DNA of 64,000 bases, taken from positions 377,828,001-377,892,000 of the forward strand of contig OZ024743.1 in assembly GCA_964016885.1 (NCBI GenBank), in the 5' to 3' direction. Below the pieces are notes generated by a model that worked only from the letters and a program-made list of their open reading frames with translations, ran no database searches and was not told the DNA's origin. This DNA comes from Eledone cirrhosa (taxonomy: Eukaryota). A program made the position numbers and the translations under genes. Positions within the stretch are counted from its first letter, which is position 1. The number at the start of each line of letters is the position of its first letter. Shown here one piece after another: positions 3,001 through 61,508 of this stretch.

Positions 3001-6000
3001 TAACTGTAAACTGTGTTAATGTTAACTGCAAACTATGTCGATGTTAACTGTAAACTGTGTTGATGTTAACTGTAAACTGTGTCAATGTTAACTGTAAACT
3101 GTGTCAATGTTAACTATAAACTGTGTCAATGTTAACTGTAAACTGTGTTAATGTTAACTGTAAACTGTGTCAATGTTAACTGTAAACTGCGTCAATGTTA
3201 ACTGTAAACTGTGTCAATGTTAACTGTAAACTGTGTCAATGTTAACTGTAAACTGTCAATGTTAACTGTAAACTGTGTCAATGTTAACTCTAAACTGTCT
3301 CAATGTTAACTGTAAACTGTGTTAATGTTAACTGTAAACTGTGTCAATGTTAACTGTAAACTGTGTTGTTAATGTTAACTGTAAACTGTGTCAATGTTAA
3401 CTCTAAACTGTGTCAATGTTAACTGTAAACTGTGTTAATGTTAACTGTAAACTGTGTCAATGTTAACTCTAAACTGTGTCAATGTTAACTGTAAACTGTG
3501 TTAATGTTAACTCTAAACTGTGTTAATGTTAACTGTAAACTGTGTCAATGTTAACTGTAAACTGTGTCAATGTTAACTGTAAACTGTGTCAATGTTAACT
3601 CTAAACTGTGTCAATGTTAACTGTAAACTGTGTTAATGTTAACTCTAAACTGTGTTGATGTTAACTCTAAACTGTGTCAATGTTAACTGTAAATTGTGTT
3701 AATGTTAACTCTAAACTATGTTAATGTTAACTGTAAACTGTGTCAATGTTAACTGTAAACTGTGTCAATGTTAACTGTAAACTGTGTTAATGTTAACTCT
3801 AAACTGTGTTAATGTTAACTGTAAACTGTGTTAATGTTAACTGTAAACTGTGACAATGTTAACTGTAAACTGTGTCAATGTTAACTCTACACTGTGTCAA
3901 TGTTAACTGTAAACTGTGTTAATGTTAACTGCAAACTGTGTCAATGTTAACTCTAAACTGTGTTGATGTTAACTGTAAACTGTGTCAATGTTAACTGTAA
4001 ACTGTGTCAATGTTAACTATAAACTGTGTCAATGTTAACTGTAAACTGTGTCAATGTTAACTGTAAAATGTGTTAATGTTAACTGTAAACTGTGTCAATG
4101 TTAACTGTAAATTGTGTCAATGTTAACTGTAAACTGTGTTCATGTTAACTGTAAACTGTGTCAATGTTAACTGTAAACTGTGTTGATGTTAACTGTAAAC
4201 TATGTCAATGTTGACTATAAACTGTGTCAATGTTAACTGTAAACTGTGTCGATGTTAACTCTAAACTCGGTCAATTTTAACTGTAAACTGTGTTAATGTT
4301 AAATTAAACTGTGTTAATGTTAACTGTAAACTGCCTCAATGTTAACTCTAAACTGTGTTAATGTTAACTGTAAAATGTGTCAATGTTAACTCTAAACTGT
4401 GTCAATGTTAACTGTAAACTGTGTTGATGTTAACTGTAAACTGTGTCAATGTTAACTCTAAACTGAGTCAATGTTAACTGTAAACTGTGTTAATGTTAAC
4501 TTAAACTGTGTCAATGTTAAATGTAAACTGTGTCAATATTAACTGTAAACTGTGCTGATGTTAACTGTAAATTGTGTCAATGTTAAATGTAAACTGTGTC
4601 AATGTTAACTGTAAACTGTGTTAATGTTAACTGTAAACTGTGTCAATGTTAAATGTAAACTGTGTCAATGTTAACTGTAAACTGTGTTAATGTTAACTGT
4701 AAACTGTGTCAATGTTAACTGTAAACTGGGTCAATGTTAACTGTAAACTGTGTTAATGTTAACTCTAAACGGTGTTAATGTTAACTGTAAACTATGTTAA
4801 TGTTAACTGTAAACTGTGACAATGTTAACTGTAAACTGTGTCAATGTTAACTCTAAACTGTGTTAATGTTAACTGTAAACTGTGTTAATGTTAACTCTAA
4901 ACTGTGTTAATGTTAACTCTAAACTGTGTTAATGTTAACTGTAAACTGTGTCAATGTTAACTCTAAATTGTGTCAATGTTAACTGTTAACTGTGTCAATG
5001 TTAACTGTAAATTGTGTCAATGTTAACTTAAACTGTGTCAATGTTAACTGTAAACTGTGTTAATGTTAACTGTAAGCTGTGTCAATGTTAACTGTAAACT
5101 GTGTCAATGTTGACTGTAAACTGTGTTAATGTTAACTCTAAACTGTGTTAATGTTAACTGTAAACTGTGTCAATGTTAACTGTAAACTGTGTCAATGTTA
5201 ACTTAAACTGGGTCAATGTTAACTGTAAACTGTGTTAATGTTAACTCTAAACGGTGTTAATGTTAACTGTAAACTATGTTAATGTTAACTGTAAACTGTG
5301 ACAATGTTAACTGTAAAATGTGTCAATGTTAACTCTAAACTGTGTTAATGTTAACTGTAAACTGTGTTAATGTTAACTATAAACTGTGTTAATGTTAACT
5401 GTAAACTGTGTTAATGTTAACTGTAAACTGTGTCAATGTTAACTGTAAACTGTGTTAATGTTAACTGTAAACTGTGTCAATGTTAACTGTAAACTGTGTC
5501 GATGTTAACTGTGAACTGGGTCAATGTTAACTGTAAACTGTGTCAATGTTAACTCTAAACTGTGTCAATGTTAACTGTTAACTGTGTCAATGTTAACTGT
5601 AAACTGTGTTAATGTTAACTGTAAACTGTGTCAATGTTAACTGTAAAGTGTGTCAATGTTAACTGTAAACTGTGTCGATGTTAACTGTAAATTGTGTCAA
5701 TGTTAACTGTAAACTGTGTCAATGTTAACTGTAAACTATGTTGATGTTAACTGTAAACTGTGTCAATGTTAACTCTAAACTGTGTCAATGTTAACTGTAA
5801 ACTGTGTTAATGTTAACTCTAAACTGTGTTAATGTTAACTGTAAACTGTGTTAATATTAACTGTAAACTGTGACAATGTTAACTGTAAACTAGGTCAATG
5901 TTAACTCTAAACTGTGTCAATGTTAACTGTAAACTGTGTTAATGTTAACTGCAAACTATGTCGATGTTAACTGTAAACTGTGTTGATGTTAACTGTAAAC

Positions 6001-9000
6001 TGTGTCAATGTTAACTGTAAACTGTGTCAATGTTAACTATAAACTGTGTCAATGTTAACTGTAAACTGTGTTAATGTTAACTGTAAACTGTGTCAATGTT
6101 AACTGTAAACTGCGTCAATGTTAACTGTAAACTGTGTCAATGTTAACTGTAAACTGTGTCAATGTTAACTGTAAACTGTCAATGTTAACTGTAAACTGTG
6201 TCAATGTTAACTCTAAACTGTCTCAATGTTAACTGTAAACTGTGTTAATGTTAACTGTAAACTGTGTTAATGTTAACTGTAAACTGTGTCAATGTTAACT
6301 GTAAACTGTGTTAATGTTAACTGTAAACTGTGTCAATGTTAACTCTAAACTGTGTCAATGTTAACTGTAAACTGTGTTAATGTTAACTCTAAACTGTGTT
6401 AATGTTAACTGTAAACTGTGTCAATGTTAACTGTAAACTGTGTCAATGTTAACTGTAAACTGTGTCAATGTTAACTCTAAACTGTGTCAATGTTAACTGT
6501 AAACTGTGTTAATGTTAACTCTAAACTGTGTTGATGTTAACTCTAAACTGTGTCAATGTTAACTGTAAACTGTGTTAATGTTAACTGTAAACTGTGTCAA
6601 TGTTAACTCTAAACTGTGTCAATGTTAACTGTAAACTGTGTTAATGTTAACTCTAAACTGTGTTAATGTTAACTGTAAACTGTGTCAATGTTAACTGTAA
6701 ACTGTGTCAATGTTAACTGTAAACTGTGTCAATGTTAACTCTAAACTGTGTCAATGTTAACTGTAAACTGTGTTAATGTTAACTCTAAACTGTGTTGATG
6801 TTAACTCTAAACTGTGTCAATGTTAACTGTAAACTGTGTTAATGTTAACTCTAAACTGTGTTAATGTTAACTGTAAACTGTGTCAATGTTAACTGTAAAC
6901 TGTGTCAATGTTAACTGTAAACTGTGTTAATGTTAACTCTAAACTGTGTTAATGTTAACTGTAAACTGTGTTAATGTTAACTGTAAACTGTGACAATGTT
7001 AACTGTAAACTGTGTCAATGTTAACTCTACACTGTGTCAATGTTAACTGTAAACTGTGTTAATGTTAACTGCAAACTGTGTCAATGTTAACTGTAAACTG
7101 TGTTGATGTTAACTGTAAACTGTGTCAATGTTAACTGTAAACTGTGTCAATGTTAACTATAAACTGTGTCAATGTTAACTGTAAACTGTGTCAATGTTAA
7201 CTGTAAAATGTGTTAATGTTAACTGTAAACTGTGTCAATGTTAACTGTAAATTGTGTCAATGTTAACTGTAAACTGTGTTCATGTTAACTGTAAACTGTG
7301 TCAATGTTAACTGTAAACTGTGTTGATGTTAACTGTAAACTATGTCAATGTTGACTATAAACTGTGTCAATGTTAACTGTAAACTGTGTCTATGTTAACT
7401 CTAAACTCGGTCAATTTTAACTGTAAACTGTGTTAATGTTAAATTAAACTGTGTTAATGTTAACTGTAAACAGTCTCAATGTTAACTCTAAACTGTGTTA
7501 ATGTTAACTGTAAAATGTGTCAATGTTAACTCTAAACTGTGTCAATGTTAACTGTAAACTGTGTTGATGTTAACTGTAAACTGTGTCAATGTTAACTCTA
7601 AACTGAGTCAATGTTAACTGTAAACTGTGTTAATGTTAACTGTAAACTGTGTCAATGTTAAATGTAAACTGTGTCAATATTAACTGTAAACTGTGCTGAT
7701 GTTAACTGTAAATTGTGTCAATGTTAAATGTAAACTGTGTCAATGTTAACTGTAAACTGTGTTAATGTTAACTGTAAACTGTGTCAATGTTAAATGTAAA
7801 CTGTGTCAATGTTAACTGTAAACTGTGTTAATGTTAACTGTAAACTGTGTTAATGTTAACTCTAAACTGTGTCAATGTTAGCTCTAAACTGTGTCAATGT
7901 TAACTCTAAACTGTGTCAATGTTAACTCTAAACTGAGTTAATGTTAACTTTAAACTGTGTCAATGTTAACTGTAAACTGTGTTAATGTTAACTGTAAACT
8001 GTGTTCATGTTAACTGTAAACTGTGTTAATGTTAACTGTAAACTGTGTCAATGTTAACTGTAAACTGTCTCAATGTTAACTCTAAACTGTGTTAATGTTA
8101 ACTCTAAACTGTGTTAATGTTAACTGTAAACTGTGTCAATGTTAACTCTAAACTGTGTCAATGTTAACTTTAAACTGTGTTAATGTTAACTGTAAACTGT
8201 GTCAATGTTAACTGTAAACTGTGTCAATGTTAACTCTAAACTGTGTCAATGTTAACTCTAAACTGTGTCAATGTTAACTTTAAACTGTGTCAATGTTAAC
8301 TCTAAACTGTGTCAATGTTAACTGTAAACTGTGTCAATGTTAACTGTAAACTGTGTCAATGTTAACTGTAAACTGTGTCAATGTTAACTGTAAACTGTCT
8401 CAATGTTAACTCTAAACTGTGTTAATGTTAACTCTAAACTGTGTTAATGTTAACTGTAAACTGTGTCAATGTTAACTGTAAACTGTGTTAATGTTAACTG
8501 TAAACTGTGTCAATGTTAACTGTAAACTGTGTCAATGTTAACTCTAAACTGTGTCAATGTTAACTCTAAACTGTGTCAATGTTAACTTTAAACTGTGTCA
8601 ATGTTAACTCTAAACTGTGTCAATGTTAACTGTAAACTGTGTCAATGTTAACTGTAAACTGTGTCAATGTTAACTGTAAACTGTGTTAATGTTAACTCTA
8701 AACTGTGTTAATGTTAACTGTAAACTGTGTTAATATTAACTGTAAACTGTGACAATGTTAACTGTAAACTAGGTCAATGTTAACTCTAAACTGTGTCAAT
8801 GTTAACTGTAAACTGTGTTAATGTTAACTGCAAACTATGTCGATGTTAACTGTAAACTGTGTTGATGTTAACTGTAAACTGTGTCAATGTTAACTGTAAA
8901 CTGTGTCAATGTTAACTATAAACTGTGTCAATGTTAACTGTAAACTGTGTTAATGTTAACTGTAAACTGTGTCAATGTTAACTGTAAACTGCGTCAATGT

Positions 9001-11990
9001 TAACTGTAAACTGTGTCAATGTTAACTGTAAACTGTGTCAATGTTAACTGTAAACTGTCAATGTTAACTGTAAACTGTGTCAATGTTAACTCTAAACTGT
9101 CTCAATGTTAACTGTAAACTGTGTTAATGTTAACTGTAAACTGTGTTAATGTTAACTGTAAACTGTGTCAATGTTAACTGTAAACTGTGTTAATGTTAAC
9201 TGTAAACTGTGTCAATGTTAACTCTAAACTGTGTCAATGTTAACTGTAAACTGTGTTAATGTTAACTGTAAACTGTGTCAATGTTAACTCTAAACTGTGT
9301 CAATGTTAACTGTAAACTGTGTTAATGTTAACTCTAAACTGTGTTAATGTTAACTGTAAACTGTGTCAATGTTAACTGTAAACTGTGTCAATGTTAACTG
9401 TAAACTGTGTCAATGTTAACTCTAAACTGTGTCAATGTTAACTGTAAACTGTGTTAATGTTAACTCTAAACTGTGTTGATGTTAACTCTAAACTGTGTCA
9501 ATGTTAACTGTAAACTGTGTTAATGTTAACTCTAAACTGTGTTAATGTTAACTGTAAACTGTGTCAATGTTAACTGTAAACTGTGTCAATGTTAACTGTA
9601 AACTGTGTTAATGTTAACTCTAAACTGTGTTAATGTTAACTGTAAACTGTGTTAATGTTAACTGTAAACTGTGACAATGTTAACTGTAAACTGTGTCAAT
9701 GTTAACTCTACACTGTGTCAATGTTAACTGTAAACTGTGTTAATGTTAACTGCAAACTGTGTCAATGTTAACTGTAAACTGTGTTGATGTTAACTGTAAA
9801 CTGTGTCAATGTTAACTGTAAACTGTGTCAATGTTAACTATAAACTGTGTCAATGTTAACTGTAAACTGTGTCAATGTTAACTGTAAAATGTGTTAATGT
9901 TAACTGTAAACTGTGTCAATGTTAACTGTAAATTGTGTCAATGTTAACTGTAAACTGTGTTCATGTTAACTGTAAACTGTGTCAATGTTAACTGTAAACT
10001 GTGTTGATGTTAACTGTAAACTATGTCAATGTTGACTATAAACTGTGTCAATGTTAACTGTAAACTGTGTCTATGTTAACTCTAAACTCGGTCAATTTTA
10101 ACTGTAAACTGTGTTAATGTTAAATTAAACTGTGTTAATGTTAACTGTAAACTGTCTCAATGTTAACTCTAAACTGTGTTAATGTTAACTGTAAAATGTG
10201 TCAATGTTAACTCTAAACTGTGTCAATGTTAACTGTAAACTGTGTTGATGTTAACTGTAAACTGTGTCAATGTTAACTCTAAACTGAGTCAATGTTAACT
10301 GTAAACTGTGTTAATGTTAACTGTAAACTGTGTCAATGTTAAATGTAAACTGTGTCAATATTAACTGTAAACTGTGCTGATGTTAACTGTAAATTGTGTC
10401 AATGTTAAATGTAAACTGTGTCAATGTTAACTGTAAACTGTGTTAATGTTAACTGTAAACTGTGTCAATGTTAAATGTAAACTGTGTCAATGTTAACTGT
10501 AAACTGTGTTAATGTTAACTGTAAACTGTGTTAATGTTAACTCTAAACTGTGTCAATGTTAGCTCTAAACTGTGTCAATGTTAACTCTAAACTGTGTCAA
10601 TGTTAACTCTAAACTGAGTTAATGTTAACTTTAAACTGTGTCAATGTTAACTGTAAACTGTGTTAATGTTAACTGTAAACTGTGTTCATGTTAACTGTAA
10701 ACTGTGTTAATGTTAACTGTAAACTGTGTCAATGTTAACTGTAAACTGTCTCAATGTTAACTCTAAACTGTGTTAATGTTAACTCTAAACTGTGTTAATG
10801 TTAACTGTAAACTGTGTCAATGTTAACTCTAAACTGTGTCAATGTTAACTTTAAACTGTGTTAATGTTAACTGTAAACTGTGTCAATGTTAACTGTAAAC
10901 TGTGTCAATGTTAACTCTAAACTGTGTCAATGTTAACTCTAAACTGTGTCAATGTTAACTTTAAACTGTGTCAATGTTAACTCTAAACTGTGTCAATGTT
11001 AACTGTAAACTGTGTCAATGTTAACTGTAAACTGTGTCAATGTTAACTGTAAACTGTGTCAATGTTAACTGTAAACTGTCTCAATGTTAACTCTAAACTG
11101 TGTTAATGTTAACTCTAAACTGTGTTAATGTTAACTGTAAACTGTGTCAATGTTAACTGTAAACTGTGTTAATGTTAACTGTAAACTGTGTCAATGTTAA
11201 CTGTAAACTGTGTCAATGTTAACTCTAAACTGTGTCAATGTTAACTCTAAACTGTGTCAATGTTAACTTTAAACTGTGTCAATGTTAACTCTAAACTGTG
11301 TCAATGTTAACTGTAAACTGTGTCAATGTTAACTGTAAACTGTGTCAATGTTAACTGTAAATTGTGTTAATGTTAACTGTAAACTGTGTCAATGTTAACT
11401 GTAAACTGTGTCAATGTTAACTGTAAACTGTGTCAATGTTAACTGTAAATTGTGTCAATGTTAACTGTAAACTGTGTCAATGTTAACTGTTAACTGTGTC
11501 AATGTTAACTCTAAACTGTGTCAATGTTAACTCTAAACTGTGTCAATGTTAACTGTAAATTGTGTCAATGTTAACTCTAAACTGTGTTAATGTTAACTGT
11601 AAACTGTGTTAATGTTAACTGTAAACTGTGTCAATGTTAACTCTATACTGTGTCAATGTTAACTCTAAACTGTGTTAATGTTAACTGTAAACTGTGTCAA
11701 TGTTAACTCTATACTGTGTCAATGTTAACTCTAAACTGTGTTAATGTTAACTGTAAACTGTGTTAATGTTAACTTTAAACTGTGTCAATGTTAACTCTAA
11801 ACTGTGTTAATGTTAACTGTAAATTGTGTCAATGTTAACTCTAAACTGAGTTAATGTTAACTCTTAACTGTGTCAATGTTAACTGTAAACTGTGTCGATG
11901 TTCACTCTAAACTGTGTTAATGTTAACTGTAAACTGTGTTAACATTCATTGTATCAATGTTAACTGTAAATTGTGTTAATGTTCACAGTA
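1..11990. repeat. 22-bp tandem satellite (consensus AAACTGTGTYAATGTTAACTST), roughly 540 units, with kb-scale higher-order duplications; intronic to the PAP2 gene
   Basis: The 22-nt period is read directly. Each unit has a GTTAAC palindrome. Rare variant units recur at fixed offsets (1759 bp, 2681 bp). The array degenerates at ~11940-11995. Confidence 0.98.
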
Positions 11991-12030
11991 AACTGTTTTA
12001 AGATTTCAAATAATTTTCTTCATTATTTAG

Positions 12031-19018: not shown

Positions 19019-19143
19019 TATAAACGTTTGGAGTTAGAAGGCCAGAACAATGCAAGTATGGATATAGAATATCTTTTGCATTTGTATTTATATTCTATAT
19101 CCATACCTGCATTGTTCTGGCCTTCTATCTCCAAACGTTTATA
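19019..19143. repeat. Inverted repeat with ~54-bp arms, 2 mismatches and a short loop
   Basis: tataaacgtttggagttagaaggccagaacaatgcaagtatggatatagaatat pairs with atattctatatccatacctgcattgttctggccttctatctccaaacgtttata. Confidence 0.95.
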
Positions 19144-19519
19144 CCTAACTACGCAATGCTTCAAGTAAACTACAATTTCCTCCATATATATATATGTATG
19201 ACAAGCTTCCACATAATTTCCATCTACCAAACTTTCACTCACAAGGTATCGGACCCAAAGCTAAACTAAAGGGTCATACAGTGGGACTGGCTCCTAGATA
19301 GAATCAAATCACTTCACATACATTCCTAATGTAAGGCCTATGTGAAAAAAAAAAGAAAGGCATAAATGCCACATCTTCCATTGCTTCTTTAAACCTGAGG
19401 TTGCATGACTATCAATGAAAATCATTTTAACTGCTTACATAATAAATACTTCTCCCACATCATTCCCTCATGAACCTTGACAAAACAATCACTTGAACTT
19501 CTGGCTTGTTTGTTTGGGG

Positions 19520-19702: not shown

Positions 19703-20347
19703 ATTGGTTTTAAAAAAAGTATCTGTGGCGGATTGTAATATTTTTATGAATAAATAAATTTCTTAATTAAACTAATTTAATTGTGGTTTAATTGAATCCA
19801 AATTAATGAAAGTAAATGATATTGATTTTCTTTTCTTTTAATTATCATATTATCTTCCTTTTCCCGCTGGTCACCATTGAGACTTCTGCTCTCTTCGGTC
19901 CTTGAACTCCACAAAATTAACAGGAGTGCATTCCAGCCAAGAAAGAAGTTACGTGAGGTGAAATGGCTGATGTAGCAGGTGTCACTGGCTGTTTTATACA
20001 GCAACAATTTTACCATCTTGTCCACAGGGTACGGCTGAGATATAGCACCTACACTGGGGTGTAGAGTCTGCCCTCTTCCACTTACTTTCATTATTTAATT
20101 TCTTTTTTTTTTATTGCAAACATGCGTAAATTTGCAGTATTATCTTGTAGCAACCCCCTACAACTGGAACCCAGAACGTTTAGGAGTTGCGTCCCTTTGT
20201 GACGGTCCGTGTACTACAGTGGCAGATCCATGTACTAAATGGAGTTGCGTCCCCCTGGGGACTATATATTTGAGAACTTAAGGCATTCTATCTCACTTCC
20301 TACGCCGCAGCTGAAAAGACCACTTCAACTTTACCAAGAGACGATTT

Positions 20348-20790
20348 CACTTAAAATCCCTATAAAGATTTAGGAATTTGAGAGGAAGCGAGATTTGTCC
20401 ATACATCTTTATAGACGAGTGATTAACAGCCTGCAGAGTAACGGATGACTCCACGGGGGTATCTTTCAGGCAATGGACCGGCCAAATACTACAGGAGGCT
20501 CCTGTATCCATGAGGAAACCTCTTTCCAACATAAGGTCCTTAATGAAGAAATGGCAGTTGACCTCAGTAAAGCCACCAAACCACCATTTCTTCATTAAGG
20601 ACTTTATGTCAGGAAGAGGTTTCCTCATGGATACAGGAGCCTCCTGTAGTATTTGGCCGGTCCATTGCCTGAAAGATACCCCCGTAGAGTCATCCGTTAC
20701 TCTGCAGGCAGTTAATCACTCGTCTATAAAGACTTACGGACAAATCTCTCTTCCTCTCAAATTCCTAAATCTTCGTAGGGATTTTAAGTG
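20348..20790. repeat. Fold-back inverted duplication of the Gypsy protease region (arms ~207 bp, spacer ~29 nt)
   Basis: 20348-20554 is the near-perfect reverse complement of 20584-20790. The same peptide GFLMDTGASCSIWPVHC appears on both strands. Confidence 0.96.
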
Positions 20791-23596
20791 GATTTTTACG
20801 GTTGCCAATTTGCTATACCCTATCTTAGGAGCGGATTTCCTCCACAACTTCTCTTTGACTGTGGACGTCCATGGCCAACGCCTGGTGGATGACATCACCG
20901 GTTTTTCAATTCGTGGCCGGAAAGCCAATGCTCCAACAGTCAGCCCCATATTCTTCATCGCTGCCGCTGTAGACGCCTACCATTCGTTGTTAGGTTCTTT
21001 CCCGGAGCTCACCGATGGAAATTTTCAAGTCACTGAGCCAACACACTCAACTGAACATTCCATTTCCACCACCGGTGCTCCAGTGTTTTCGCGTCTATGC
21101 CGCTTACCGGCAGCACGGACATTATTCGTCCATCTACGAGTTACACATGATGCCCAAGACTTCTGGAGACCCACTGAGGATTATAGGAGGTTAAATGCCA
21201 TGACCGTCCCGGATAGGTATCCCATCCCCCATCTCCAGGATTTCGCATCTTAATTGTAGGGGTGTAAGATTTTCTCAAAACTAGATTTAGTGCGAGCTTA
21301 CCAACAAATTCTGGTCAGGAAGGAGGATATTCAGAAAACGGCGATCTTTTCGGATCCTTCGAATTTTTGACCACACCTTTCGGACTCAGGAATGGTGCTA
21401 GCACTTTTCAGCAGTTCATAGACGAAGTCACTCGTGGTCTGGACTTCGTTTATGCATACATAGACGATCTTCTCATCACTAGTTCCTCTCCGGAAAAGCA
21501 TATGCACCACATGCATCTTTTATTTCGGCGACTTCAGGATTACCACATTCGTGTGAATCCCGCAAAGTGTGTTTTCGGTTCCACTTCGCTAAATATTTTA
21601 GGCCATCTCATCGACGCCGAAGGCATTAGGCTGCTTCCCCAGCGAGTTCAAGCCATACAGGATTTACCTCCGCCTACTACACTTCACCAGTTGTGTCACT
21701 TCTTAGGCCTAATCAATTTCTATAGGCGTTTCATTCCTCATTGTGCTAATTTGCTATCTTCCCTTACTGCCATTTTGAAAAATCGTCGTAAGAAGAATGA
21801 GGATATTTCCTTGACACAAGGACAGCTTAAAGACTTCCAGACTGTCAAGACAGCACTCACTAGTTCATCTTTGCTAGCCCACCCGGTACCAGAGGCCAAG
21901 CTTTCGCTTTGTGTTGATGCATCTGATACCGCTGTGGGAGCAGTTTTACAGCAGTACAACGCTGGAAACCAACAACCTTTGGCATTTTTCTCAAGGAAGC
22001 TGAAACCAGCAGAAACGCGTTACAGCACATTTGGGTGGGAATTATTAGCCATATATCTGTCGGTGAAACATTTCTCTCATATTCTTGAGGGGAGAAATTT
22101 TATTGTTTTAACTGACCACAAACCCCTGACCTTTGCTTTGAGGGCTAAAATCGACAGATATTCACCCAGAGAGACAAGGCACTTGGATTACGTTTCGCAA
22201 TTCACAAATGATATCCAGCACATTGCTGGCTCGCTTAACACAGCTGCAGACGCATTGTCACGTTTGCCAATCAGCTCCATCTCGTCATCCCAGGAGATTG
22301 ACTTAAGTCGTTTAGCTGCAGACCAACCTGCACTCCAATCGTTGGATACTCATTCTGCCGAGTTTGCAATTGCATCTTCAAATATCTGCCCTTGTCGACC
22401 ACCGACAGGCAGATTCTATGTGATGTATCTACGGATTCACCACGACCTTATGTTCCTGAGGCTCACCGTCGAATTGTGTTCCTTGCTTTGCACAGCATTT
22501 CTCACCCAGGAATTTCAGCCACAGTAAAGCTCATAACGGCTAGATTTTTCTGGCCCAATATGAGGCGATAAATTACTGTCTGGTGCCGTTCCTGTACACA
22601 GTGTCAAAAATCTAAAGTCCACAGACACATCCGAACTCCACTTGGTACTTTCAGTACTCCAGATGCTCGTTTTCAACACATCCACATTGATATCGTTGGA
22701 CCTTGGCCATTCAGTAGTGGATATTCTTACCTCTTGACCTGCATCGATTGTTTTTCGCGATGGCCTGAAGCCATCCCCTTAAAAGACATTACCGCTGAGA
22801 CCATAGCGTGTGCCCTGGTGTCAGGGTGGATTGCCTGCTTTGGCTTGCCAACAGTCACCACAGACTGTGGTAGACAATTTGAGTCTCATCTCTTCTCTGA
22901 GCTGACAAAGATCATTGGTGCTCAACGGATTCGGACCACAGCTTATCATCCTGCTTCGAACGGAATGGTGGAACGATTCCACCGCCAATTAAAGGCCGCT
23001 CTTCGCACCTATCCAGACTCTCAACGTTGGAGCGAGTACCTTCCTATAGTATTATTAGGAATTCGGTCATCAATAAAGGAGGACCTTGGGTTCTCCCCGG
23101 CCGAATTACTGTATGGTGCTCCTCTAGCGTTGTCTGGACAAATGCTTGCCTCTGTTGATCTTGCTTTTCAGGATCCTCTTTCCTACGTATCTCGTTTGCG
23201 CTCCTATTTTCAGGACTTACCGCCCATGAATACTAGGAAACAAATTATTAAAGCTGCAGTTCCGAGGGATATTGCCTCGTAGACACATGTATTCGTCAGA
23301 AACGACGCTGTTACTCCACCCTCACACAGCCGTACTCTGGACCCTACCGTGTGTTAGCGCGCACTAACAAACATTTCACAGTAGACATTAAGGGATCCAG
23401 AGAGACAATTTCGGTTGATAGACTAAAAAAGGGATACAATGACGCTCATACACCCAAGCCACAAATACCCCAATCTTTCTCTCTTGTGCATACACCTGCT
23501 CCTTCTGCCCCACCTTCACCTACATACAAGACCACGACTCGTTCCGGTCGAAGAGTCCACTGGCCCAAAAAACTCTGCCAAACTGTTTTTATGTGA
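20584..23596 (+). pseudogene. Gypsy pol: protease (LMDTGA), RT (YIDD), RNase H (VDAS, TDHKPL), integrase ([16 protein letters not shown]), with stops and frameshifts
   Basis: ORFs 20510-21253, 21367-22527, 22734-23282 and 23351-23596 are in PR-RT-RH-IN order. Confidence 0.95.
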
Positions 23597-24203
23597 ACTG
23601 GCCACTGGAGCTTTTTTTGTTTTTCTCTTTATTGTATTGAACTATGTATACATGTACCTTTTCGTTAATATCTCATGCCTGTGCTGGGAGCCCATGCTTG
23701 GGTTCGCTACAATTGCCTTCAGGTTTTTCGCCTATCGTCTGGAGGAGGGTACTGTAGCGACCCCCTACGGCTGGAACTCAGAACGTTTAGGAGTTGCGTC
23801 CCTTTGTGACAGTCGCGACTCCCAGTGGCAGATCCATGTACTAAATGGAGTTGCGTCCCCCTGGAGACTATATATTTGAGAACTTAAGGCATTCTATCTC
23901 ACTTCCTACACCGCAGCTGAAAAGACCACTTCAACCTTACCAAGAGACGATTCCTGCTTTCTCTCCCTAGTGATGAATCCTGTCTTATGAAGAGATGACT
24001 CCTGTCTTCTCTCTCTCTTCTCTACACGCTCCAGTCTGGGAGTTGAGACCAACTCACCATCACGACATGTGGTAAAAAATATTTCTATTATTATATTTGA
24101 CTTCTGTGAAGTAAAACTATTATACAAACATGCACCAGCCATTATTGTTCTTTTTAATAATATATACACTGATACTAACCTTCTAAAATCTCTTAATACC
24201 AAA

Positions 24204-32352: not shown

Positions 32353-32559
32353 CTATATATATTTACATATATCTATTAATTTGAGTTACTGGTGCTCTGG
32401 ACAAATATCATACATAATTGATATGTTTTGATACCTTAAGTTTATATATATATATATACATATGTGCATGTATATTGGATATATATGATATATGTATATG
32501 AACGCATATATATATGTGTATATCATTATAATGATGTGTGCATGTTTATATATATATAT

Positions 32560-32880
32560 AAATGTAAGTATGTATACATATATACATATATGTATATAGA
32601 CGTACAGTAGTATGTATATATATATACATGCACACATATATATATGTACGTATGGGTTTACCGAGCATTTATTATAATGTTCGGTTTGTTTGTAAACAAA
32701 CAGCCCGAATTAAGCCGAGCACTGTACGGCGTAATTCGGGCTGTTTGTTTACAAACAAACCGAACATTATAATAAATGCTCGGTAAACCCATACATACAT
32801 ATATGTGTGCATGTATGTATATATACATACTACTATACGTCTATATACATATATGTATGTACGTATACATACTTACATTT
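32560..32880. repeat. Long palindrome (~155-bp arms, ~9-nt loop)
   Basis: gtatgggtttaccgagcatttattataatgttcggtttgtttgtaaacaaacagcccgaatta is mirrored exactly around agcactgta. The outer arms are imperfect (TA/TG)-rich. Confidence 0.95.
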
Positions 32881-33944
32881 AAGTATCAACCATACTAAGA
32901 GTGAGAAATGAAATTTTGTTTCATTCTTTTCTATTTATATATATATATATATATGTGTGTATATTATGCTGGTACCACAAAACATCCAGCCCACACTGTA
33001 AAGTGGATGTGTAAAAGACATGGCAAAAAGCACCCAGCACACACTGTCGATGTGGTTGGCATTAAGAAGAGCATCCAGCCATAGAAAACCAGCCCCAAAA
33101 GCACTCAGCACACACTGTCAATGTGGTTGGCATCAAGAAGGGCATTCAGCCAGAAACACTCCTATATGAGCAAGACACAACTTGCCTCTAAATGGGACAA
33201 ACCCGTCTAACCCATGCTAGCATGGAAGATAGACATTGATCGATGGTGATGATATATATATTATAATAATCAGTATTGACAGATCCAATCAATCGACCAA
33301 CAATGTAATTAGGCTTAAGTACACAACGTTATAGTTATCACAACTGTATAGTATCAGACGGAATAAAACGATGCTGAATATGTGATACCATCTCTATTCC
33401 TTTTCTTTATGTGTGTGTTTCTATCATCTTCGTCGTTAAACGTCTATTTTCTACGATAGCATGGGTTATATATATATATTACTTGGACCACCTTATATTT
33501 TCTGTATTTATCCTTTGTGATCCTGTCTCTATTATTGTACTCCTGAAGAAGGGCTAAAGCCCAACACATCGAACTTTCCTTTCCCTTTTCCATATAAAGC
33601 ATAAAACTAATAAAACTTTTTGTACCTCTGTTTTGCCATTTCCTTGAACTATATATATATCATCATCATCATCATTGTTTAACGTCTATCTTCCACGCTA
33701 GCATGGGTTAGATGGGAGTTGTTCCAATTTAAAGCAAGGTTGGTCGGGTGACCATGTCTCGCTCGTATAGGACTATCGGGCAGGTTTTCTACAGCTGGAT
33801 GCCCTTCCTAACACCAACCACATTTACAGTGTGGACTGGGAACTTTTTACCGTGTTTCTTACACAGCCACATTACAGCGTAGACTGTGTGTTTTTTTGTC
33901 ATGACATCTACACGATCTCAATCTCATTATCTCATTTATTTGGA

Positions 33945-40452: not shown

Positions 40453-40555
<103 letters not shown>

Positions 40556-41390
40556 AAGTTTTATTTAAATTGTTGGGTTACAACGAGTAAATATTTATAA
40601 CTGATATAAAAGCACTCAACAAGTATTTGGAGTATATTTAAATAAATGGAAACTATATTTATAAAACCATATTTATTTCATTATATATATTTCAGGGATA
40701 TCATATTAAAAATATGATCAGTTTTTATCTCAGTTCTGATTATAAACCTAGGAATTTTAAACTAGACATATGATCATTATTTTTCACACATTATTGATAC
40801 GTGTCTCATTCATGAATACTGATATTTACATTATAATACCTAATTCATACGAATTGATATTTTTAGATTGATGAAACATAATGTTTTAAATCTGCCTCGT
40901 TTATCTCTGGATATTTTTCTTTTCTCTCTATGTAACGGCTGTTTTCTCTCCTAACCACATATATCTCTCTCTACCTTAATACTAGAACTAAATAAATAAA
41001 TAAATAAATAAATATATCATTGACACGTCATTCAACTGGTGCCCAACTACCTATTTTCTTTCTCTCTATCTCTATCTATATCTATCTCTCTCTATTTTTT
41101 CTCTCTCTCTCTTCTCTCTCTCTCTCTATCTATCTCCCTCTGTGTTTTTTTTCTCTCTCTATCTATCTCTCTCTGTTTTTTCTTTACATGAATTTCTTCT
41201 CTCTATCTATCTCTCTATATCTATCTATCTCTGTTTTTCGTTGCATGCATTTCTTCTTTTTCTTCGCTTTCTTTCTTTCTTTCTTTTTATAACTGTCCCT
41301 AACATTTTTCACTACCAAATCAACTTTTTAAATGGAAGTTGAAGTTGTAAGGTATGTCAAATCTATCTATTTATAAGACTGTTTATATTG

Positions 41391-41456
41391 TATTTTGTCT
41401 GATGAAGGCATACCATATTTTTCATATGATATCCCTGAAATATATATAATGAAATA
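41391..41456 (+). ncRNA. Type I hammerhead ribozyme with long stem II
   Basis: tattttgt-CTGATGA-aggcataccatat/atatgatatccct-GAAA-tatata-TA-atgaaata. Stem III is the palindrome atatatat. Confidence 0.65.
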
Positions 41457-41496
41457 AATATGGTCTTATAAATATAGTTTCCATTTATTTAATATC

Positions 41497-41590
<94 letters not shown>

Positions 41591-41594
<4 letters not shown>

Positions 41595-42760
41595 ATACTT
41601 TGGGAGGGTCATGTTGCCAATAAGAAACACACGCACCAGTTGCTTTCACTTCAATTTATTATATATTTATAAATTTATAAATTTACAAATCTACAAACTT
41701 ATAAATTTCTGGTTGGTTGGTTGGTTCCACAACCAGATAGTTGTTTATATATATAGTCATAGTCCTTTCGTCACACACTCTGTGACCTCTTCAGTGACTG
41801 GGGATTCCTTTCTTCGTTTCTGTGCCTTTTCTTTCTTCTATCCTACGCCATTTTGTTTCTGTGTGTGTGTTGTGTGCTCAGTTTGCGCATGTGCCACATC
41901 CGGGTGTCTGTGTGTGTTTGTGTTCATTTTTCTATTTGTTTATTTATTTATTGTTGGTTGGTTGTTTGTTCTATGTGTGTGTGTGTTTACATTTTGTCCT
42001 GTGTGTGTTTTCATTTTGTGTGTGTTTTCAATTGTGTGTTTTCAATTTGTGTGTGTTTTCAATTGTAAGTTGTTTGTTCTATGTGTGTCTTCATTTTGTC
42101 CTTAATTGTAAGTTGTGATGTTGCTGTTCCACTCATATTTTCTATTTAATTTTGGTTTTAATTCTTTTATGCTTACTGCCTCTGTAATTTGCCTAAACAT
42201 TGCGTCTTTTCTGTGCGTGGATTCTATTTTTATTTCTATGCTCTCTAATCTACCCCTGTGTTCTATCTTAGCATGTTGGTAGAGCACAGATGATTCTTTA
42301 TTATCTTGGAGGTCTCGCCAGTGTTCATTTATTCGTTCCCCTATACTACGAGCTGTCTCACCTATGTACACTATATTTTTGTTTCTACATTGTCCTTCAG
42401 TACATCTTATGCTATACACTACATTTCTAGTTTTACAGTTAATATGGGGGCTTATTTTACAGGTTATACATTTCTTATCTATACATGAGGGTCTTTGGAA
42501 CGGGTATGTCTTGCTAATAAGTGTTTTTACGGAGGTACCAGGTCTTTCTACTATCTTAATATTGAGGTTATGTTTATTTAGGGCCCTTCTAAATTTGTAG
42601 GCTAGTTCGCCTCTAGGGGTTGTATTGATGAACATTACACTCTGGTATTTATTGCTATCATACCATGAGTTTATTTTATTGGCCTTGTTCCTAGTTCTTT
42701 CTATTCTATTCCAAAATTTGCTCCTATACAAGGGGCAGGTCCCATTTATGTCATTATTAT
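41591..42760 (-). mobile_element. Penelope-like element, 5'-truncated: linker + GIY-YIG endonuclease ORF and 3' pLTR
   Basis: ORF 42102-42731: C-x4-C-x2-C...NVVYSIRC...VYIGETARSIGERINEH...RQITEAVSIKELKPKLN. Confidence 0.93.
41755..41799 (-). ncRNA. Type I minimal hammerhead in the Penelope pLTR
   Basis: Minus strand reads agtca-CTGAAGA-g-gtcaca gagtg tgtgac-GAAA-ggac-TA-tgact. Confidence 0.75.
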
Positions 42761-42815
42761 AGAAAAAGCATATAACGATATGTGCTTTTACGATTCTCTA
42801 GAAAGGCCGGAAGAT

Positions 42816-42868
42816 AGGTAAATATTGCTGATGAGATGTAACAACATCGAAACTAGTCCAATATTCCT
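42816..42868 (+). ncRNA. Canonical type I hammerhead ribozyme, copy 1 (cleavage 3' of C42858)
   Basis: aatattg-CTGATGA-gatgt aaca acatc-GAAA-ctag-TC-caatatt. The core is complete, stems I and II are perfect, stem III is the palindrome ACTAGT, site GUC. Confidence 0.93.
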
Positions 42869-43281
42869 TGTCTGGCTTTCTGGAGAATAGAGGAAAGGTG
42901 TTTCCTCGAAAACCAGTATGACTCTAAAAACCGGTTTGTCTGTGTGTTTACATACAGAATAGCTGGACACTCACAGTAAAGTGTCCAGTGAAAAACTCGG
43001 TACATCTACATATGTACACGTGTGTGTATTCATATGCATACTAGTATTTCAGTATACATATGTGGATGTACATTTTTAACTTAATTGTTTAAGCGTCAGT
43101 CATACAAAAGTGAGTTACAAACGAAACGAAATTTAATTTCGTTTCGTTATTTGTTTTTATCGTCTCCGCTGAACCGGTACGTACTCACGCTCTATGCAAA
43201 TTAGTCTGCCCACTACTAATTTTCATAGAAAAAGCATATAACGATATGTGCTTTTACGATTCTCTAGAAAGGCCGGAAGAT

Positions 43282-43334
43282 AGGTAAATATTGCTGATGA
43301 GATGTAACAACATCGAAACTAGTCCAATATTCCT
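43282..43334 (+). ncRNA. Canonical type I hammerhead ribozyme, copy 2 (cleavage 3' of C43324)
   Basis: Identical to copy 1 and 466 nt downstream. Confidence 0.93.
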
Positions 43335-43619
43335 TGTCTGGCTTTCTGGAGAATAGAGGAAAGGTGTTTCCTCGAAAACCAGTATGACTCTAAAAACCGG
43401 TTTGTCTGTGTGTTTACATACAGAATAGCTGGACACTCACAGTAAAGTGTCCAGTGAAAAACTCGGTACATCTACATATGTACACGTGTGTGTATTCATA
43501 TGCATACTAGTATTTCAGTATACATATGTGGATGTACATTTTTAACTTAATTGTTTAAGCGTCAGTCATACAAAAGTGAGTTACAAACGAAACGAAATTT
43601 AATTTCGTTTCGTTATTTG

Positions 43620-43683
<64 letters not shown>

Positions 43684-44189
43684 AACACACAAATGTGTCG
43701 TCTTATTTAAGTATTTCTCCACGTACAGAATATATCTATCTCTTTATTAAGACATTCATGAATGTATTCTAAGCTTTGGGCAAGGTTTCTCTTCTATTTC
43801 TAGCAAGTTGAATGACAACATAGACACTTCCTCGTGGTTACGTGATGATTACTTAGCTGGTTGCTTTACCATCGGTTGACTGCGATTGAAATTGTTTCTG
43901 TGTGTATTAAATTATGTTAGGAACTTTGAATGTGTGTCACCGGTACCATTTAGGAGAAGGTAAACATTATCAGTGACACCGGCTACTCGCTAGCTTTATA
44001 ACTTTAATTCATCTGATTATATCTTGTGTAGCAATTATCTAGTATTAAGGTGAATGTTGATGTTTTGTGGATAACACACGACGACGACTTAGGTAATAAC
44101 GAAGACAAGAAACTAAATAATTGTTTCTACTTTTGGCACCTAAATAATAGAATATCATCAGAGATATTTCTCATCTTCTAAGAAATACA

Positions 44190-45275
44190 ATGGATTACGT
44201 TAAACACTTTGACACTTCTAATACATCTGTTTTTACCAATATAGATACAGTTACACAGGCATACAGTGGTGAGGAACCTTTACCTAATGAAACATATACA
44301 GAACAAGGATCATTACACAGAAATATTTCTGAATATCGTTGTGAGATTTGTAGGGAAATTTTCTCAACGGAACATGAAGCCACTGCACACAAAGATGTAC
44401 ACAATAGGGAAAAGCCTTTCCATTGTGAAATATGTGGGAAATATTTTATCTATAATTCTCATTTAATAATGCATAATCGTAGTCACACTGGAGAAAAACC
44501 ATATCATTGTGAAATATGTGGGAAATCTTATGCCTATAATAGTGATCTAACAAAACACAAAAGAACACACACTGGAGAAAAGCCATATCGCTGTGAAATA
44601 TGTGGGAAATCATTCTCTCTTAAATCTAGTCTTGTTATTCATATACGTAGTCACACCGGAGAGAAAAAATATCTTTGTGAAATATGTGAGAAATCATTCA
44701 CTGATAATTCTTCTCTTGTAGTTCATAAAAGAATCCACACTGGAGAAAAACCGTATAGCTGTGAAGTATGTGGGAAATCCTTTATTAAAAATTCTCATCT
44801 TGTAGTCCACAAACGTTGCCACACTGGAGAAAAACCATATATTTGTGAAATATGTCGGAAATCATTTGGTGATAATTCAGCTTTTTTAGTTCACAAAAGA
44901 ATACACACTGGAGAAAAACCTTACCATTGTGAAATATGTGGGAAATCGTTTGTTTCTAACAATGATTTAAATAGACACATTATAATACACACAGGAGAAA
45001 AACCCTTCCACTGTGAAATATGTGGGAAATCTTTTACTCAGAATTCTAGTCTTGTAGTTCACAAACGTAGACATACTGGAGAAAAACCCTATCATTGTGA
45101 AAGTTGTGGGAAATCTTTCACTCGAAATATTCATCTTGTTATCCATATACGGAGTCACACTGGAGAAAAGCCTTACCATTGTGAAATATGTGAGAAATCT
45201 TTTGTTTCTAGCAGTGTCTTAAAAACACACAAACATATACATACTGGGGGAAAGTTTTTTAACTGTGAATCATAA
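44190..45275 (+). CDS. C2H2 zinc-finger protein, 361 aa, 11 tandem fingers, uninterrupted ORF
   Basis: Eleven C-x2-C-x12-H-x3-H units with TGEKPY linkers. A twelfth finger is cut by the stop codon. No KRAB, ZAD or BTB domain is seen. Confidence 0.93.
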   Translation: MDYVKHFDTSNTSVFTNIDTVTQAYSGEEPLPNETYTEQGSLHRNISEYRCEICREIFSTEHEATAHKDVHNREKPFHCEICGKYFIYNSHLIMHNRSHTGEKPYHCEICGKSYAYNSDLTKHKRTHTGEKPYRCEICGKSFSLKSSLVIHIRSHTGEKKYLCEICEKSFTDNSSLVVHKRIHTGEKPYSCEVCGKSFIKNSHLVVHKRCHTGEKPYICEICRKSFGDNSAFLVHKRIHTGEKPYHCEICGKSFVSNNDLNRHIIIHTGEKPFHCEICGKSFTQNSSLVVHKRRHTGEKPYHCESCGKSFTRNIHLVIHIRSHTGEKPYHCEICEKSFVSSSVLKTHKHIHTGGKFFNCES

Positions 45276-59030: not shown

Positions 59031-59343
59031 CTGTACATAAGTGGGACATAGACCCCTGGCCTGTCTGGAAGATCTGTAGCTCCACTTCGGTACTGACTTA
59101 GTCTATGTAGACCCATCTAGCCCTTGCTGGAAGGGAAAGCAGACGTTAAAACAATGATGCTGAAAGTTTATATATATATAAATAAAGAGTCAGGATCCCA
59201 ACGGCTGAGCTCTTGCCATTTCAACAGCTAGTTCCAGACTAGTAATGGTCTAACCAGTTTCAAACTGAATCTATCCAGATTTTTATTACAATATTCTACT
59301 ACCCCAAGTATCGAGTACCCTGGTGAGTAATGATTTATATATA

Positions 59344-59422
59344 CAAGGTGTCCTTCAAAAATGTATACACAATTCGATTAGAATGCTGTTGAAGTGTGTA
59401 TACATTTGTTGGAGACACCCTG
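59344..59422. mobile_element. 79-bp Tc1/mariner-type MITE
   Basis: ta|caaggtgtccttcaaaaatgtatacac...gtgtatacatttgttggagacaccctg|ta. Confidence 0.75.
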
Positions 59423-61508
59423 TATATACACATATATTACATATTAAATTGTGCACTAAATAGCTGAAGTATATTATAAATTCACAATTGTACAAAATAT
59501 AGGTTTTTAATCTAAGTTGGGAAAAATGTGCATAAGAATCATACTAAATATAGATCCATGATAACCAACTGTCAAACATCTTAAAGTTTGTTCTAAGCCG
59601 AAGACTCATCAGGCCAGTGCTTGTCCCTGGTTTCCTTGGATAGGACGCCAGTCTATCACAGGAGTGTACTGGAGCAATGTGAAATAAAGTGTTTTGCTCA
59701 AGAACACAACACAATAGCCTGACCAGGAATTAAACCGATGACATTATGATTGTACAGCAAGCAACTCAACCATTAGGCCATGTCATGCACCTTCATGTGT
59801 CTAACATCTTAACTTTTTTTTATATTTTAATATCAAACTGCATAAAACTCCCCCTTGATTCTATGATACAAAACTGCCCATTTTAAAGTGTTCAAACTTA
59901 TATTAAAACCTTTCATCATAATTTTATTTAAGAATTATTCATCGAGTAATGTTTCAAACATCAACTTACTAATGAAAAATGTATTTATTTTCATGAGTTT
60001 TATATCAAATAATAATATTTGATTCATTTGCAAGCAAACAGCCTCATTATATATTGATGAAGGGCAATAACCCAGAAACAATATTGTCAATTGTTTCTCT
60101 GTCATCGCTAGAACAAAAGGATGGTGATGGTTATCTAAAAAACAGAGTAATAATTTGATTCATTTGCTTGCAAATGAATCAAATATTATTATTATCATTT
60201 GATATAAAACTCACAAATATATTTACATATCTGCTATGTTAGAGCAAAAAACCAAATTCTAATTTTGTTTTTTAATTTATTTTACTAATTCTTCAAAATT
60301 TTTTATTATTTTCAAAATTAATTGAAACATATTGGCAGTGTGTTTCGTTAGAAATATGATAACGAAAAGGTTAATTGTATGCTTGATCCTAAATACTGTA
60401 TTGCAACATTAAAAACCAAGCAATTCTTGGGATTTATTTACTAATCCTCTATTTACTCCCACATTCAAATAACTAAGCTATGCAGAGGGATGAATATTTT
60501 AAAGAAAAAAAATTATTTTTTTTAATGATCAAGTCAAACTGGAAGTAGTAAACAAATTTTTTTTAATTCAAGCAACTTTATTTTAATTCAAAACAGATTT
60601 GAAATTAATTTTGATAATTAACAATTATTTCTTTAACATTCAATACAAAATGATATCGTACAACCAACAAAATATTAAAAATAAAGTAAAAATTTTGGCA
60701 GTTTAGAACAATGTAAGTCCATTGTATAAACAGGAATTGACAAAGAAAAATAATACTGATTGTATTTAGTTGTATAATCAAAATTATTTAAATACAATTA
60801 ATCTCTTCAATGATGTAAGCAATTATTAAATAATTTTTTAACTAAAAGACACAAAAATATACATAAACACTGTGCTAGCTCTTTTCATTAAACTGACTAG
60901 AATTAAGCAGAAACATGTATTGAAATATGCATAAAAAAGGAAATTTTAAATCACAATTTTATGGGCATATTAATTTGAAACCATGAGCATAGTACGCAAT
61001 CCATTAAGGTTATACATAAATATACATTACAAAGCTACACACAAGGCACCTATCAATGTTTAAGTATTACATTAAATAGGCATATTGACAAACTTAAAGG
61101 CTCAAAAGTTTTCAGTAAAGCCACTGTTTATTTCATGCCTTTCAAAAGTTAACTTCTGGGCATCTATTTAGTATTCAGAGGAAGATTATGTTTGCCACTA
61201 GTCACATAGGAGTATAGAATGTGTTTATATGATAAGAATACAAAAAGTTGAATCGATTTTGTTGTTTTGTTTTGTTTTTTTTTTGTTTTTCATCAAAAAT
61301 ATAATAACATTTGAGTATATAAGTTAGGTAGAATATAAAATTAAATGAAAATTTACTTTAGAAAAAAAAAAAAGCTCTCTTGAAGTTATGAGTTTAGAAA
61401 TTAAAAGTAATTAATATGACTAGCTTTCTCAATATGTAAAAAAACAATTATTTTAAATAAATAAAATTCAAAAGTAAAAAAAAAAGACCAATAACAGCAT
61501 TACAGTAA

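Follow-up and report, generated by a model that had tools for sequence, protein, structure and literature searches.

A Penelope-like element and a hammerhead ribozyme repeat joined head-to-head in a TA microsatellite of Eledone cirrhosa: possible copying of two RNAs into one break

In the window, i.e. the whole 64-kb stretch of DNA analysed here (Eledone cirrhosa, contig OZ024743.1, positions 377,828,001 to 377,892,000 of the forward strand), we saw two elements lying head-to-head within one TA microsatellite, with both 3′ ends pointing outward into TA: a truncated Penelope-like element (PLE) on the minus strand and a tandem ribozyme repeat on the plus strand. The explanation towards which we lean is a single two-ended insertion of Penelope type, in which the ends of the break were primed on two different RNAs; the repeat may have been copied by a protein of the focal Neptune family or of another. 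The locus contains the following features.

41498-41589: (TA)n target on the PLE 3′ side, 92 bp
41591-42758 (-): 5′-truncated Neptune-type PLE, with the ORF end and the 3′ UTR/pLTR
41755-41799 (-): putative minimal type I hammerhead of the PLE, read from sequence
42102-42758 (-): intact ORF fragment of 218 aa, with thumb/linker end, Zn-finger-like linker and GIY-YIG endonuclease
42755-42759: head-to-head (5′-to-5′) junction, set by the limits of PLE protein similarity and of unit-copy identity
42759-43626 (+): 466-bp non-coding repeat, 1.86 units (868 bp)
42810-42881 (+): canonical type I hammerhead, copy 1, with palindromic ACUAGU stem III; predicted cut between 42858 and 42859
43276-43347 (+): canonical type I hammerhead, copy 2; predicted cut between 43324 and 43325
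43586-43614 (+): perfect 13-bp hairpin, ~10 nt upstream of the repeat 3′ end, kept in the sister element (see below)
43624-43675: (TA)n target on the repeat 3′ side, 52 bp

The initial annotation had proposed both this two-part geometry between (TA)n tracts and a direct junction truncating the ORF, and both were borne out. The PLE frame runs for 218 codons without a break from 42758 on the minus strand (stop at 42102-42104). Similarity to PLE proteins extends to 42755 in three of seven proteins and to 42752 in two more (tblastn), while identity with the second repeat unit begins at 42759; thus, at most three bases at the junction are unassigned. The junction contains neither a TA tract nor filler. 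An imperfect 5/7 likeness between PLE and unit, in register, is present there; no significance is attached to it. The cores of the three hammerheads are at 41794 (-), 42828 (+) and 43294 (+). Both the PLE and the repeat lack an inverted copy of themselves; each occupies the place of the other's partner. The unit reads TAT at 43624, a 3-base overlap with the right tract, and a target-site duplication is unreadable inside (TA)n. Tracts of at least six TA units occur 28 times in the window.

The PLE arm has lost its reverse transcriptase (RT) core by truncation. The remaining ORF is 25-49% identical to the seven longer proteins, several of which carry the YxDD RT motif upstream in the alignment; its match to the Pfam GIY-YIG family (E 1.8e-4, 22.2 bits) is slightly below the 22.6 cut-off. 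In a protein alignment of six sequences, the focal ORF and five of the seven homologues, the YIGET core is invariant, as are C92, C97 and C100 of a CX4CxxC linker, C-IDKK-C-IT-C (6/6). Residues C108, C119, H146, H162 and H167 are invariant in 6/6 as well; we read them as the putative CCHH motif of the endonuclease. A CX2-5CxxC linker between RT and endonuclease (EN) and a CCHH motif in the endonuclease have been given as traits of the EN+ PLEs Neptune and Nematis (PMC8557442), and by those definitions the focal PLE, judged from its predicted protein, is of the C-terminal-endonuclease type, Neptune/Nematis. The label ‘Neptune-type’ is used here because of the CX4CxxC linker and the TA target, the RT needed for phylogenetic placement being missing.

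That the PLE carries its own hammerhead on the minus strand, as initially annotated, held with the specification that the motif is of the minimal type: stem I AGUCA/UGACU (5 bp), CUGAAGA, an extra G, a 6-bp stem II, GAAA and a 2-bp stem III. The predicted cut falls between 41760 and 41759 and leaves 169 nt to the 3′ end. The motif has no Rfam match and its fold z is -0.16; it does appear to fit the description of minimal ribozymes of PLEs, with short helix I, long helix II and an extra base ahead of stem II (PMC4209133).

Searches with the PLE protein confirmed none of 51 candidate stretches in metagenomes, none of 54 in viral contigs and one of 146 in genome contigs (38% identity), the latter being uninformative on the junction. 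This related PLE fragment occupies positions 1663-2292 of a 2.7-kb contig (L001) of a bacterial metagenome-assembled genome and is probably animal DNA in a bacterial bin.

The two copies within the repeat arm, 42759-43160 and 43225-43626 (spacing 466), have 0 differences over 402 bp, an outcome expected <5% of the time at a pairwise divergence of 0.75%. With this identity on one side and 218 unbroken codons on the other, both parts of the locus look young. Both repeat ribozymes match the full Rfam model Hammerhead_HH9 (E 7.7e-8, 38.9 bits, under the 52-bit gathering score). The Rfam scan of the window gave no match at gathering score; miRNA and sRNA matches, far under gathering and located on TA-rich hairpins, were rejected. 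The complete cut-to-cut monomer, 42859-43324, has 36.5% GC and folds with z -10.4 (0/100 shuffles equally stable), and the unit contains no ATG ORF above 50 aa. By such features the repeat would be classed as a non-LTR retrozyme. The ribozyme motif of the unit had 0 matches in metagenome, genome and viral contig collections that are poor in animal DNA.

Rather than coinciding with a ribozyme cut, the 3′ end of the repeat falls 300 nt beyond the second predicted cut site, on its downstream side, and the hairpin at 43586-43614 could be the initiation signal. As the copy spans two predicted cut sites, its template would have been an uncleaved multimer or a circle, and the sequence fits either. 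The initial annotation took the more-than-unit length as a sign of copying around a circular template. The length itself, 1.86 units, was confirmed; a circle is not required, as an uncleaved linear tandem transcript would give the same product. Partial tandems, for that matter, are described as a normal product of PLEs (PMC8557442).

About 520 bp downstream of the locus we saw an ORF with a C2H2 zinc-finger array (44151-45275, +), with a possible 3′ splice site just ahead of an ATG near 44190. One could speculate that an insertion in an intron of this C2H2 gene would place the ribozyme dimer in the sense strand of a pre-mRNA.

The two arms do not appear to be related to each other. Three pieces of the PLE, namely its last 60 nt, the bulk of the 3′ UTR with the hammerhead (44 nt of the UTR being omitted) and the ORF, were compared with the unit by local alignment in both orientations. 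Five of the six alignments were at shuffle level, and the sixth, between the PLE 3′ UTR and the antisense unit, was equalled by 4/100 shuffles. These alignments rule out that the repeat is the focal PLE's own inverted pLTR and agree with the earlier claim that the two hammerheads are unrelated outside the core. A 3′ sequence signal common to PLE and unit was rejected too, since for the last 60 nt 77 of 300 shuffles score equally well. If the arms correspond to two unrelated RNAs, the focal pair would not have arisen by one cDNA folding back on itself.

A search for inverted repeats gave 43 matches within 5 kb of each other beyond position 12000; five loci were read and the rest were judged by their flanks only. 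Three of the five fit a tailed head-to-head pattern and two do not. The three that fit are as follows.

19019-19183: small head-to-head pair; arms 52/54 identical, 17-nt centre, 40-nt one-sided tail, TA tracts flanking
32559-32935: sister element, head-to-head pair flanked left and right by (TA)n and showing homology with the 3′ half of the 466-bp unit
40552-41497: older inverted pair, less clean; 80 identities, 697-nt centre, 82-nt one-sided tail, TA tracts on both sides

The sister element, ~10 kb from the focal locus, is the most telling of these. Its arms (32559-32717 and 32727-32881) share 149 identities, with 6 mismatches and 4 gaps; the centre between them is 9 nt with no TA, and a 54-nt tail is present on the right arm only. 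In a homology scan with the unit over 284 tiles, from position 12000 onward and with the focal region excluded, the sister tile scored 163, the top of the 284, compared with 93 for the highest-scoring tile that is unrelated to the unit; 200 dinucleotide shuffles gave at most 95. Searches by nhmmer between sister and unit, in two directions within the window, gave E 2e-6 and 1e-9. The hairpins of one sequence recur in the other, in unchanged order. In the RNAalifold consensus of the two, both partners differ in 5 of 35 pairs, and alignment of the stems by hand gave seven double-changed pairs in four hairpins; such changes, coming from two sequences with TA-rich stems, support homology of sister and unit, not function.

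The tailed end of the sister coincides with the position at which the focal repeat arm ends. Over the terminal 60 nt, 2 of 300 shuffles aligned as well as sister and unit do, this being one of 28 pairs tested. The homology is partly TA/CA-rich, comes from two sequences and stops short of any hammerhead, the sister arms being too short to contain one; it concerns one diverged sister locus in 64 kb, which may be either a retrozyme or the 3′-terminal part of a different PLE. Nevertheless, a pair with a one-sided tail is a known PLE signature, and the family of the 466-bp repeat therefore looks, from these insertion structures, as if it were mobilised by the PLE pathway. Furthermore, since the sister pairs with itself and contains no Neptune sequence, unit-like RNAs would have served as independent templates.

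The remaining inverted loci extend the picture of the window. The pair at 19019-19183 belongs to a family unrelated to the unit and has the same PLE-type signature. The centre of the pair at 40552-41497 is filled with microsatellite and contains CTGATGAAGG at 41399; this CTGATGA was dismissed as a true hammerhead, with no suitable fold and z -0.57. Its right TA tract, 41498-41589, is common to the focal PLE, which is separated from this older insertion by the 92 bp of TA. The two loci that do not fit were rejected as PLE pairs, 20348-20790 for having no TA flanks and 59338-59428 for having no tail. The former is a 443-bp near-perfect palindrome and looks like an inverted duplication inside the surrounding LTR-type element, which has direct repeats at 20146-20346 and 23753-23952 as well as pol-like ORFs at 20423-23282; the latter is a 91-bp TA-flanked element with terminal inverted repeats, which we take to be MITE-like. 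The first part of the window, 1-12001, is a 12-kb tandem array with ~92% self-identity at offsets of multiples of ~22 bp.

In the preferred reading, with both RNAs entering one break, the PLE protein would have cleaved both strands of the (TA)n target. One break end would have primed on the Neptune PLE RNA and the other on a multimeric or circular retrozyme RNA. Copying of the repeat may have been initiated internally, just 3′ of the terminal hairpin, with ~3 nt of pairing with the TA primer, and reverse transcription would have read through the cut sites on the uncleaved or circular template. The two truncated cDNAs would then have been end-joined head-to-head.

Several observations argue for this reading. 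The focal junction has neither TA nor filler, whereas the neighbouring older insertion is set apart by a 92-bp TA spacer, and the window contains three tailed pairs with homologous arms and without central TA. The sister forms a pair whose tailed end equals the 3′ end of the unit, and both parts of the focal locus look young. The biochemistry of the enzyme argues in the same direction: purified PLE protein, with a predicted dimer, is reported to cleave and extend both target strands and to initiate internally (PMC11167929). Inverted 5′-truncated copies with one-sided tails are described as typical of PLEs (PMC8557442), and the existence of two sites of internal initiation has been offered as the reason for the one-sided tail (PMC11167929); twin priming has been proposed as the source of chimeras in which L1 and another RNA lie in opposite orientation (10.1101/2025.02.02.635956). 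On the other hand, the reading is weakened because it concerns a single locus, because TA tracts are hotspots in which sequential insertion is plausible, and because of the composition and reach of the sister homology given above.

The initial annotation had one PLE RT copy both RNAs. Of this, use of the PLE insertion pathway by the repeat family was upheld by the sister pair (32559-32935); the attribution to the focal PLE's own RT was not, the 3′ ends of the two parts being unlike. Mobility of PLEs in Adineta is said to rely on family-specific pLTRs (PMC3846280), and with no common 3′ sequence the focal PLE need not be the helper. That the focal Neptune nevertheless was the helper of the retrozyme family, one complex having carried its own RNA and a retrozyme circle copied for 1.86 rounds and recognised by the structure of the terminal hairpin, is conceivable and we hold it to be doubtful.

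Two successive insertions in a TA hotspot offer an unlikely alternative. A longer PLE would have come first, the repeat would have been inserted into TA on its 5′ side and its cDNA joined inside the ORF, with deletion of the DNA between the insertion point and the PLE ORF; the order may also have been the reverse. The left TA tract does already carry an older insertion, and the imperfect 5/7 match at the junction could allow annealing. Deletions linked to insertion are known for L1, where Gilbert is said to have described them in 2002. However, the deletion would have to remove the TA tract together with any inverted partner of either element; the sequential cases in the window retain a TA spacer, and the two parts look equally young.

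Quite improbable, in our estimate, is that one composite RNA, with array and PLE in the same orientation, was twin-primed here, or that a pre-formed composite was copied; in the extreme form of this alternative, the 466-bp unit would be an upstream part of the focal PLE family. Twin priming on one RNA yields the same head-to-head geometry (10.1101/2024.08.27.596794), and PLEs with tandem hammerheads have been described (PMC7229834). Against this, the sister pairs with itself and lacks Neptune sequence, and the unit has a canonical, not a minimal, hammerhead and no ORF >50 aa.

An index of sequencing runs, queried with 41591-43626, returned 20 runs with matching words. Four of them are under one species label, with shares of sampled words of 0.75, 0.74 and 0.73 (one sample) and 0.49 (another sample); eight runs under eight other species labels share 0.21-0.36 of words, in near-identical parts, which may reflect either close relatives or horizontal spread, and eight runs share <0.2. 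That a post-insertion rearrangement or an assembly artefact, i.e. local duplication or mis-assembly, made the tandem or the junction is very improbable: the 100% identity of the two repeat copies and the unexplained 0.73-0.75 of words in the three best runs would be compatible with it, yet the tandem is a circular permutation with both ribozymes whole and a coherent closed fold, and its 3′ end agrees with the sister element.

Mobilisation of animal retrozymes by PLEs is a standing hypothesis, argued from the ribozymes that the two have in common, from their co-occurrence and from homology to pLTRs (PMC7229834, PMC7761336, 10.64898/2026.07.22.740005). To such arguments the window adds signs at the level of insertions: a post-hairpin 3′ end in two family members, TA targeting, a tailed pair and fusion to a coding PLE. 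If both RNAs entered one break, we would have direct sequence evidence of a ribozyme repeat spreading by the Penelope pathway. A pair of unrelated RNAs points to priming from both break ends and bears on the origin of the inverted repeats of PLEs; if the focal Neptune were the helper, inverted insertions of PLEs could quite generally involve two RNAs, and head-to-head junctions between unlike elements could be used to assign retrozymes to their PLE families across the genome. The scope of these statements is one fossil event plus a supporting sister locus. Inverted insertions of PLEs, retrozymes, their proposed link to PLEs, non-autonomous PLE derivatives and heterologous twin priming by L1 were already known separately, as far as the sources consulted go. 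In the open-access literature, supplements aside, we found described neither a head-to-head fusion of PLE and retrozyme nor a retrozyme-like family with tails of PLE type.

Among known systems, the closest in structure are the tandem and inverted insertions of EN+ PLEs (Craig et al. 2021, PMC8557442; Frangieh et al. 2024, PMC11167929), in which an inverted 5′-truncated copy is joined 5′-to-5′. The focal locus is like them in the partial tandem, the outward 3′ ends, the (TA)n target and the internal initiation, which at the locus is inferred. In the cases described, the inverted copy is a copy of the same element, whereas here the non-coding tandem of a ribozyme repeat faces a coding PLE to which it is unrelated.

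Metazoan non-LTR retrozymes (Cervera and de la Pena 2020, PMC7229834; Li et al. 2026, 10.64898/2026.07.22.740005) consist of a tandem non-coding unit, as does the focal repeat, and share with it GC <50%, a canonical type I hammerhead in consecutive units and a strongly self-paired monomer. The length of 466 bp is slightly above the 150-450 bp of PMC7229834 and within the 51-972 bp of 10.64898/2026.07.22.740005. The likeness is one of sequence alone, cleavage and circular RNA being predicted for the focal repeat. The retrozyme papers make the case for PLE mobilisation on the grounds named above; in the passages of their main text consulted here, neither the ends or tails of insertions nor inverted pairs or fusions of PLE with retrozyme are described.

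Non-autonomous elements of Chlamys, e.g. MRC1 (PMC8557442), resemble the focal repeat in being non-coding, putatively PLE-dependent and present as multicopy head-to-tail insertions. As a rule, these elements and their autonomous partner have 3′ sequence in common, while the focal unit has none in common with the PLE to which it is fused.

Finally, the 5′-to-5′ joining of two reverse transcripts begun at opposite ends of a single break, as proposed for the focal locus, is described in LINE-1 chimeras with tRNA, 5S, U5 and mRNA and in bridges of two L1 copies (10.1101/2025.02.02.635956; 10.1101/2024.08.27.596794). These differ from the focal locus in belonging to another enzyme class, in being poly(A)-primed, in having readable target-site duplications and in that the partner is no ribozyme multimer; in both systems, the foreign RNA is found in antisense.
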